A stretch of 5,948 bases of DNA, taken from the IMG/VR virus record IMGVR_UViG_2579778745_000009; one strand, given 5' to 3'. Within the stretch, counting starts at the first letter, position 1; every line of letters starts with the position of its first letter. The notes under the pieces are model-generated. The model searched no databases. It had not been told where the DNA came from and was given only the letters and a program-made list of their open reading frames with translations. Origin of the DNA: a virus. Lineage: Duplodnaviria > Heunggongvirae > Uroviricota > Caudoviricetes. Below are positions 4,282 to 5,948 of this stretch, piece by piece. Made by a program: the position numbers and the translations under genes.

Positions 4282-4665
4282 ATGCGTGATATTCAGATGG
4301 TTCTTGAGCGTTGGGGAGCGTGGGCGGCTAATAATCATGAAGATGTGACCTGGTCGTCCATTGCCGCCGGTTTTAAGGGATTAATTCCTTCAAAAGTAAA
4401 ATCTCGCCCGCAATGTTGTGACGATGACGCGATGATCATTTGCGGGTGCATGGCCCGTCTGAAAAAGAACAACAGCGATTTGCACGATTTATTAGTAGAT
4501 TATTATGTAGTTGGTATGACATTCATGTCACTGGCAGGTAAGCATTGCTGCTCTGATGGTTATATCGGGAAAAGGTTACAGAAGGCTGAGGGCATAATTG
4601 AAGGGATGTTAATGGCATTAGATATCCGGTTAGAGATGGATATCGTTGTTAATAACTCTAATTAA
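4282..4665 (+). CDS. quuD: Late-gene antiterminator Q homolog
   Basis: 127-aa ORF from the ATG at 4282 with GGAG seven nt upstream. The track's TTG at 4267 is a less likely start. Cys-rich segments ([25 protein letters not shown]) are compatible with a zinc-binding Q-type antiterminator. Sits immediately after the nin genes, as Q does in lambdoid phages. Confidence 0.85.
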
Positions 4666-4687
4666 TACGCCAATTATTTACTAAAAG

Positions 4688-4716
4688 TTATTAAAAATGG
4701 GGCGTTGAAACGCCCC
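4688..4716 (-). terminator. Intrinsic terminator oriented for the minus strand (porin transcript)
   Basis: Stem GGGGCG (4699-4704) / CGCCCC (4711-4716) with loop TTGAAA. On the minus strand the stem is followed by AUUUUUAAUAA (complement of 4688-4698). On the plus strand it is followed by CAAAAATAAAGGG, with no U-tract. Confidence 0.4.
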
Positions 4717-4756
4717 CAAAAATAAAGGGTAATATATAACAGAAGGTTTGTATAGT

Positions 4757-4804
4757 TAGAAGCAAGGTTGTGCTTCTAAAGGAAGTGGCTTGAGGGAGCC
4801 ACTT
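4757..4804. repeat. Two tandem perfect 8-bp-stem hairpins
   Basis: TAGAAGCA (4757-4764) pairs with TGCTTCTA (4771-4778). AAGTGGCT (4783-4790) pairs with AGCCACTT (4797-4804). Neither is followed by a U-tract on either strand. Confidence 0.4.
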
Positions 4805-4845
4805 ATATGTTGGGGAGGCAAAGCCTCCCACAACATATCTTTTAG
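4805..4845 (+). terminator. Intrinsic terminator oriented for the plus strand (quuD side), possibly bidirectional
   Basis: About 15-bp stem ATATGTTGGGGAGGC (4805-4819) / GCCTCCC-A-CAACATAT (4823-4838) with one bulged A and a 3-nt loop, followed by CTTTTAG. It lies only 16 bp from the porin stop codon on the opposite strand. Confidence 0.5.
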
Positions 4846-4853
4846 TAATCAAA

Positions 4854-5886
4854 TTAGAACTGGTAAACCATACCTACAGCAACGATATCATCGGTAGCAA
4901 CGCCAGATGCTTTCGTGAAATCGCTCTTATCAATCAGGTTGATTTTGTAGTCAACAAAAGTGGACATATTTTTGTTGAAGTAATAGGTTGCACCTACATC
5001 AACATATTCAACCAGGTCCTGATCACCCCAAACACCCAAGTCTTTTCCTTTAGAATGCAGGTAAGCAACGGATGGACGCAGGCCGAAGTCGAACTGATAT
5101 TGTGCAACAGCTTCGAAGTTTTGTGCTTTGTTGGCAATATGGTTATTACCAAAAACAGTCATGTTCTGGGTTTCAGAATAGGTGGTGGCCAGATAGATGT
5201 TGTTCGCATCATATTTCAGACCAGCTGCCCATACTTCAGCATTTTGACCAGAAGCATTCAGACCGTTGTTACCGTAGATAACCTGATTATTAGTGCGATC
5301 AGATTTAGCATAGGTTGCACCTACACCGAATCCTTCATACTCATAAGTAGTGGAGAAACCGAAACCATCACCATTAGCTTCAGTTACGTCAGTGCGGTCA
5401 TTTTTACCCTGATACTGAGCAGCAAAGTTCAGACCATCAACCAGACCAAAGAAGTCGTTGTTACGATAAGTTGCAACACCAGTGGTGCGACCAGTCATGA
5501 ACACATCTGTTTGAGTCCAAGTGTCACCACCGAATTCTGGCAGGACGTCAGTCCACGCACCGATGTCGTATGCTACACCGTAGTTACGGCCGTAATCGAT
5601 GGAGCCGTAGTCACCGAATTTCAGGCCAGCGAAGGCAAGACGGGTTTTATCTTTGGAGGAACCTTGAGATTCAGCGCGGTTGCCTTTGAATTCATATTCC
5701 CACTGACCGAAACCAGTCAGTTGATCGTTGATTTGGGTTTCACCTTTGAAGCCAAGACGGGCATAAGTAGTATCACCATCATCTGCATCATTAGAGGAGA
5801 AGTAGTGCTTAGCATTAACTTTCCCGTACAGATCCAGCTTGTTACTGTCTTTATTATAAATTTCAGCTGCCTGAGCAGACATCGCC
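4854..5886 (-). pseudogene. nmpC: OmpC/PhoE/NmpC(Lc)-family outer-membrane porin, 5'-truncated by IS1 insertion inside the signal-peptide codons
   Basis: Minus-strand ORF translating to ...[29 protein letters not shown]...[12 protein letters not shown], with a typical porin C-terminal Phe and an intact stop at 4854-4856. The reading frame runs without a break into IS1 sequence at 5887, so the track's TTG start at 5900 lies inside IS1. Only the last ~6 signal-peptide residues remain; native promoter, ribosome-binding site, start codon and hydrophobic core are absent. Confidence 0.75.
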
Positions 5887-5948
5887 GGTGATGCTGCCAA
5901 CTTACTGATTTAGTGTATGATGGTGTTTTTGAGGTGCTCCAGTGGCTT
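5887..5948 (+). mobile_element. IS1 insertion sequence, left end (IRL), partial; continues beyond the window
   Basis: 5887-5948 reads GGTGATGCTGCCAACTTACTGATTTAGTGTATGATGGTGTTTTTGAGGTGCTCCAGTGGCTT, which matches the IS1 left terminal inverted repeat and leader as I remember them, with the insA GTG start at IS1 position 56. Confidence 0.85.
5942..5948 (+). CDS. insA: IS1 InsA, first two codons only (GTG GCT ...); the rest is outside the window
   Basis: The GTG at 5942 corresponds to the insA start (InsA begins MASVSISCPSC..., GTG GCT TCT GTT in IS1). Only 7 nt are in the window. Confidence 0.5.

Follow-up and report, generated by a model that had tools for sequence, protein, structure and literature searches.

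Gene content of the window and state of the porin gene

The stretch of DNA analysed here, 5,948 nucleotides in length and further referred to as the window, carries the early-right and late-regulatory region of a DLP12-like lambdoid prophage. Its plus strand holds a row of prophage genes ending with quuD, and its minus strand holds an OmpC-family porin gene that runs directly into the left end of an IS1 element near the right edge of the window. The features are as follows.

Plus strand: C-terminal part of ybcK (cut at the window edge), ybcL, ybcM, ybcN, ninE, ybcO, rusA, ylcG and quuD
4282-4665, plus strand: quuD, Q-type late antiterminator gene
4666-4853, minus strand: 3' untranslated region of the porin gene, homologous to the K-12 region holding ipeX
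4854-5886, minus strand: 5'-truncated nmpC/Lc-type prophage porin gene (codons 18-360, the stop codon and one nucleotide of codon 17)
5868-5886, minus strand: remnant of the signal-peptide coding sequence, by comparison with the intact allele (residues -6 to -1, AMSAQA, plus one nucleotide)
5886/5887: novel joint, with base 3 of porin codon 17 (M, position -7) on its left and base 1 of IS1 on its right
5887-5948, plus strand: left end of IS1 (IS1A type), the first 62 nucleotides of a complete 768-bp element
About 5887-5909: left inverted repeat of IS1
5894-5921: inward-facing promoter-like site of insA (CTGCCA-16-TATGAT), found by consensus scan

The identity of quuD follows from a match to the Pfam family Phage_antitermQ (E=9.7e-54) and from the RefSeq annotation. 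It is convergent with the porin gene and lies directly downstream of it, and thereby shows where in the lambdoid late region the porin gene belongs, between the gene for the Q antiterminator and the lysis cassette. This cassette is present in the ancestral arrangement found in a sister strain (L004, see below) and deleted in the window allele. In the complete chromosome of strain Z1323CEC0003 (L003:1-21200, in which the window corresponds to L003:12001-17948), the DLP12-like gene set from emrE to quuD, together with the porin gene, is part of a composite defective prophage that is located between ybhC and ybhB, compared to argU in K-12 and REL606. The ybhC/ybhB interval is the integration site of phage lambda in K-12. 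The left part of the composite prophage contains a truncated integrase gene, a gam fragment and a SecB-like/MqsA-like pair.

The porin reading frame covers the full Porin_1 family (PF00267 positions 1-337 of 337, E=2.6e-152) and scores above the cut-off of the NCBIfam OmpC subfamily (504.8 compared to 484), where the alignment starts at position 18 of the 368-position profile. An intact porin of 360 amino acids contains the same sequence as its residues 18-360, and the N-terminus of this porin reads MKKLTVAISAVAASVLMAMSAQA followed, at the cleavage site, by AEIYNK... This intact allele in turn shows 100% identity with the porin of the inducible Escherichia phage PhiR70_1, which supports the designation as a prophage porin. 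The break falls within codon 17 (AT/G) of the 23-residue signal peptide, while the cleavage point lies between 5868 and 5867, so that the AQA/AE cleavage site and the entire mature porin are retained. An earlier, sequence-only reading of this DNA had described the porin frame as continuing into the IS1 left end at 5887, with the mature part and cleavage site intact and the signal peptide replaced upstream of residue -6. Both the sequence of the junction and the identity to the intact porin bear this out.

Little is left from which the remnant could be translated and exported. The sole in-frame ATG is located at 5880-5882 (MSAQAAEIY...) and the IS1-derived sequence upstream of it, ...GTTGGCAGCATCACCGGCG, holds no AGGAG-like Shine-Dalgarno motif, in agreement with what had been noted before; in the native porin gene, AAAAGGGCTCACG precedes the ATG. 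The charged n-region and hydrophobic core of a Sec signal peptide are no longer encoded, AMSAQA being all that is left of MKKLTVAISAVAASVLMAMSAQA. The TTG at 5898-5900, an alternative start, would give an 11-residue lead that, by the established rules for Sec signal peptides, has neither a basic residue nor an adequate hydrophobic core. We also considered a translational fusion initiated from within IS1 and rejected it, as the frame opens just 10 codons above the ATG, after a TAA, and the resulting 14-residue sequence has no signal-peptide character. With promoter, ribosome-binding site, start codon and 17 of the 23 signal-peptide residues gone, the remnant would be a null allele, as had been concluded earlier for this prophage nmpC/Lc-type porin, and it is expected to undergo neither transcription from its own promoter, nor efficient translation, nor export. 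Its sequence thus marks it as a predicted export-incompetent pseudogene. RefSeq/PGAP annotates 4854-5882 (L003:16854-17882) as a normal CDS, 'porin OmpC', of 342 amino acids (WP_029397883.1) and not as a pseudogene. This truncated protein of 342 amino acids is indexed in 218 blocks of public assemblies.

At the other side, the porin gene is undamaged. Its 3' end is intact, as is a terminator-like hairpin downstream of it (4699-4716, minus strand), both as previously stated, and the 3' untranslated region is identical to the K-12 quuD-nmpC intergenic region in 182 of 192 aligned columns. Since an Rfam scan of the whole window gave no match at E<=0.1, the assignment of ipeX rests on this homology to the K-12 intergenic region and on the literature. 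This RNA is reportedly produced from the porin promoter, within the porin transcript (PMC12197685). Because the porin promoter is deleted and ipeX shares that promoter, the 3'-UTR RNA would be silent as well in the window allele.

The IS1 element and its flanks in complete genomes

Positions 5887-5948 read GGTGATGCTGCCAACTTACTGATTTAGTG... and are identical, at 62 of 62 positions, to the left ends of complete 768-bp IS1 elements (in L001, L003 and L004), which are annotated in the complete genomes as 'IS1-like element IS1A family transposase'. In RefSeq the transposase is annotated with a programmed frameshift, and the Pfam families InsA, HTH_Tnp_IS1 and DDE_Tnp_IS1 match the neighbouring gene. 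The earlier naming of the element as IS1 is thereby substantiated. Judging from identical complete genomes, the element runs past the window to the equivalent of position 6654, leaving 62 nucleotides within it.

Six complete E. coli chromosomes contain the window with 100% identity over its whole length, and a seventh, that of strain E2, differs from it by an extra IS3-family insertion. This IS3-family element (L001:4247-5926) lies at the 3' end of quuD, which measures 363 nucleotides instead of 384 in E2, and neither the window nor the other genomes bearing the porin/IS1 junction contain it. In E2 (USA), Z1323CEC0003 (South Korea) and TB4019 (chicken meat, Vietnam), the IS1 element is complete at 768 bp. 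To the right of it, the identical genomes continue with CTTATTGGC..., an AraC-family regulator gene, IS remnants and ybhB-bioA-bioB. The missing 50 nucleotides of the porin gene are not found to the right of IS1 in the identical complete genomes that were extended rightwards.

The AraC-family regulator (L003:18861-19604) is just 28% identical to AppY of DLP12, and on account of this low identity the name AppY was dropped. Its sequence indicates a paralogue other than AppY that occupies the corresponding place at the end of the prophage. In this IS1, the right inverted repeat (L003:18628-18654, and in the same place in L001 and L004) carries a G-to-C change and reads AAGTTCGAGTCATTACC instead of AAGTTGGAGTCATTACC. 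This variant is common to strains with and without the deletion described below and is a useful marker of this IS1 copy.

Extension to the right, which had been proposed as a way of finding a target duplication of 8-9 bp, led to a different outcome. IS1 ends after 768 bp and the 9-bp sequences flanking it, GACATCGCC on the porin side and CTTATTGGC on the other side, do not form a target duplication. The same comparison retrieved 9-bp duplications in the positive controls REL606 (GGTTTCGGT) and AGR5151 (CTGAACCTT), both of which carry simple insertions, the IS1 of REL606 being located mid-gene in the porin gene and that of AGR5151 upstream of it. The former claim of a clean insertional inactivation consequently holds for the inactivation and fails for the clean insertion, as the remainder of the porin gene does not lie to the right of IS1.

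Reactivation of the gene, either by precise excision of IS1 or by a hybrid promoter, had been suggested too. A consensus scan of IS1 and the junction revealed no promoter-like site at the IS1 left end directed outward towards the porin remnant; the sites it did return were the inward insA site and a minus-strand site beyond the right end of IS1, with a terminator-like hairpin inside IS1 between them. A hybrid promoter was for this reason discarded, and its product would in any case have no export signal, the remnant being devoid of a usable start codon, ribosome-binding site and export signal. Given that the porin 5' end is not present across IS1, neither excision of the element nor a hybrid promoter would restore a functional porin.

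Among 5,426 complete E. coli genomes, the porin/IS1 junction occurs in nine, all of them from poultry and NZ_CP148493.1 being one of them, compared to 79 complete genomes with the ancestral junction between the tail side and IS1. Two assemblies share the porin/IS1 junction and continue differently beyond IS1, one with amyA-fliT-fliS-fliD (L014) and the other with a BigA-like autotransporter gene (L012), which suggests later IS1-IS1 rearrangements or draft misjoins.

The ancestral arrangement is preserved in Z1323CEC0018 (L004), a sister strain from the same Korean chicken collection as Z1323CEC0003, with the same prophage at the same site. The two strains match over the left 17,886 nucleotides with one mismatch and, rightwards from IS1 base 1, over 5,872 nucleotides with two mismatches. 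The agreement ends exactly at position 17886 and resumes at IS1 base 1, with no shared bases left of IS1. Between both matching flanks, to the left of IS1, the sister strain contains 6,128 extra bp, which occupy record positions 1407115-1413242 of NZ_CP148405.1. These comprise the first 50 nucleotides of the porin gene, its ribosome-binding site and promoter/upstream region, essD-rrrD-rzpD, iss (a bor homologue), ylcI, nohD, a terminase fragment, a tail-protein fragment and a tail-fibre-assembly gene, after which IS1 follows. The resident IS1 of the sister strain thus sits between the tail-fibre-assembly gene and the AraC-family regulator gene. Because the extra DNA displays the canonical order nmpC-essD-rrrD-rzpD-bor/iss-ylcI-nohD, which is also that of K-12, REL606 and 442/2, the long form is taken as ancestral.

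The IS1 of E2, which has the deletion, and that of the undeleted sister strain are identical at 768 of 768 positions and both end with the right-end variant (...AAGTTCGAGTCATTACC), which the IS1 copies of REL606 and AGR5151 lack. Even in its ancestral form (L004:24015-24782), the resident IS1 is not bordered by a target duplication, with AAGAAGGCT on one side and CTTATTGGC on the other, from which it follows that this site had a rearrangement history of its own. Earlier IS1-linked losses have probably shaped this end of the prophage, where truncated terminase and tail genes adjoin IS1.

Origin of the porin/IS1 junction

The comparison with the sister strain makes it very probable that an IS1-anchored deletion truncated the porin gene and created the novel joint at which the window ends, adjacent deletion being the favoured route. 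In a relative, the same IS is found at the same site with one flank identical, 6,128 bp are missing at the locus, and the end point of the loss coincides exactly with the IS terminus. A deletion of this size ending at the terminus of a pre-existing IS1, combined with the lack of a target duplication, is the signature of an IS-mediated adjacent deletion. According to this scenario, IS1 would already have been resident at the right end of the defective DLP12-like prophage between ybhC and ybhB. Its left end would then have been joined to a site in porin codon -7, 6,128 bp away, with loss of the DNA in between. This would have taken place in one step by intramolecular transposition, the classic IS1 'adjacent deletion', which would leave the IS and its other flank unchanged and create no target duplication. 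Adjacent deletions and recombination between IS copies are both recognised causes of IS elements that are not flanked by target duplications (PMC11708052).

The second of these causes forms the basis of a two-step route, to which we assign a clearly lower, but still appreciable, probability. Here, a second IS1 in the same orientation would have inserted in the signal sequence, after which homologous recombination with the resident copy would have deleted the interval together with one IS1. The end product would be what is observed, namely a single IS1, no duplication and an unchanged right flank, so that the one-step and two-step routes would be expected to yield an identical sequence. Simple IS1 insertions in or beside the porin gene, as needed for the first step, do exist (REL606 and AGR5151), and recombination between IS copies would account for the missing duplication (PMC11708052). 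The intermediate would, however, combine the porin/IS1 junction, followed by the rest of the porin gene to the right, with a junction of IS1 to ATCAGTACTGATG..., and such an arrangement of porin/IS1 with the remaining porin sequence on its right was encountered in none of the 5,426 complete genomes. In all nine junction-bearing genomes a single piece covers the query, and the deleted arrangement is found in all five with an inspected or aligned right flank (E2, Z1323CEC0003, TB4019, Z1323CEC0007 and L013). In addition, the IS1 of E2 equals the resident copy over its whole length (768/768) and is no mosaic, an argument that carries little weight since IS1 copies are nearly identical.

Compared to these routes, it is highly improbable that the window shows a simple and reversible IS1 insertion in the signal-peptide region, beyond which the gene would continue after a 9-bp duplication. 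The left junction looks just like an insertion junction, and such an insertion is documented for nmpC in E. coli B (bioRxiv 10.64898/2026.08.19.745717, and the structure of REL606), but all identical complete genomes that were inspected have unrelated DNA across IS1 (the AraC-family gene and ybhB-bioA), there is no duplication, and the 6,128 bp of the sister strain are missing. Even less credence can be given to an assembly artefact, i.e. a false join via collapsed IS1 repeats: IS1 is multicopy and a frequent cause of misjoins, and L012 and L014 differ to the right of it, but the junction recurs, together with the same 3 kb on its right, in complete chromosomes from separate projects, with isolates from three countries (USA, South Korea and Vietnam), and the junction is indexed in many further assemblies.

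Relation to known systems and biological meaning

The IS1-anchored adjacent deletion that we favour places the allele among several described systems. In kind, it is predicted to be the same as the classic IS1 adjacent deletions, which start at an IS terminus, keep the IS and its other flank and make no duplication. IS1-promoted adjacent deletions were first described beside IS1 in the gal region and are textbook knowledge. The closest counterpart is nmpC::IS1 of E. coli B (REL606/BL21), in which the same gene family, at the prophage position between quuD and essD, is silenced by IS1A as in the window, and of which the porin protein is identical in its N-terminal half to the window-type porin. 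The E. coli B allele is nevertheless a simple mid-gene insertion with both halves of the gene present and a 9-bp duplication (GGTTTCGGT), whereas in the window allele IS1 abuts codon -7, no duplication exists and the 5' end has gone together with 6.1 kb. In E. coli B, precise excision of 777 bp comprising IS1A from nmpC reactivates the porin and alters beta-lactam behaviour (bioRxiv 10.64898/2026.08.19.745717).

In K-12, nmpC::IS5 of DLP12 is likewise a quiescent, IS-disrupted prophage porin gene with the same neighbours from ybcK to quuD. There, IS5B lies 58 nucleotides from the 3' end of nmpC, which confirms the earlier statement of an IS5 near that end, and promoter, signal peptide and lysis genes are kept. 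The window shows the reverse, with the 3' end intact and the 5' end deleted, in a prophage at ybhC/ybhB instead of argU. The Lc porin of the lambdoid phage PA-2 and the porins of inducible E. coli phages are also of the OmpC family and are encoded beside the Q antiterminator gene, as in the window; these are complete genes in viable phages, whereas the window holds a remnant, in a prophage without lysis and packaging genes.

An independent IS1 event was observed in strain ET76 (L007:3064-6020), in the same prophage and equally without target duplication. There, IS1 links a truncated integrase gene directly to sequence lying immediately downstream of a porin gene that is intact, and nothing of the early region is left. 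These prophages are recurrently eroded by IS1. No paper describing the particular allele of the window was found in our literature search, and the allele differs from the known cases only in position and type of event.

We consider it rather doubtful that the loss of 6.1 kb was selected in a globally spread, poultry-associated E. coli lineage instead of being neutral decay. If it was, a large-channel porin, the ipeX brake on OmpC and OmpF, the lysis cassette and the iss/bor serum-survival gene would have been removed in a single step, and the possible gains would be a changed outer-membrane permeability or phage-receptor profile, or the shedding of a lysis liability.

For the interpretation of similar loci, it matters that a junction between a gene and an IS end is no proof of a simple insertion. 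Assuming one here wrongly predicts reversion, in contrast to the situation in E. coli B. Moreover, the listing of WP_029397883.1 as an intact 'porin OmpC' could mislead porin inventories drawn up with regard to antibiotic permeability or phage receptors, and the deletion of the chromosomal iss/bor gene together with DLP12-type lysis genes is relevant to the scoring of virulence markers in avian isolates. Inactivation of nmpC by IS elements is already known, by IS5 in K-12 and by IS1 in strain B, and the present allele, although of little general weight, is a further instance of cryptic-prophage erosion by an IS and of an E. coli lineage with a silent nmpC. The allele is inherited in a poultry-associated lineage of E. 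coli and is a product of ordinary, irreversible prophage decay.
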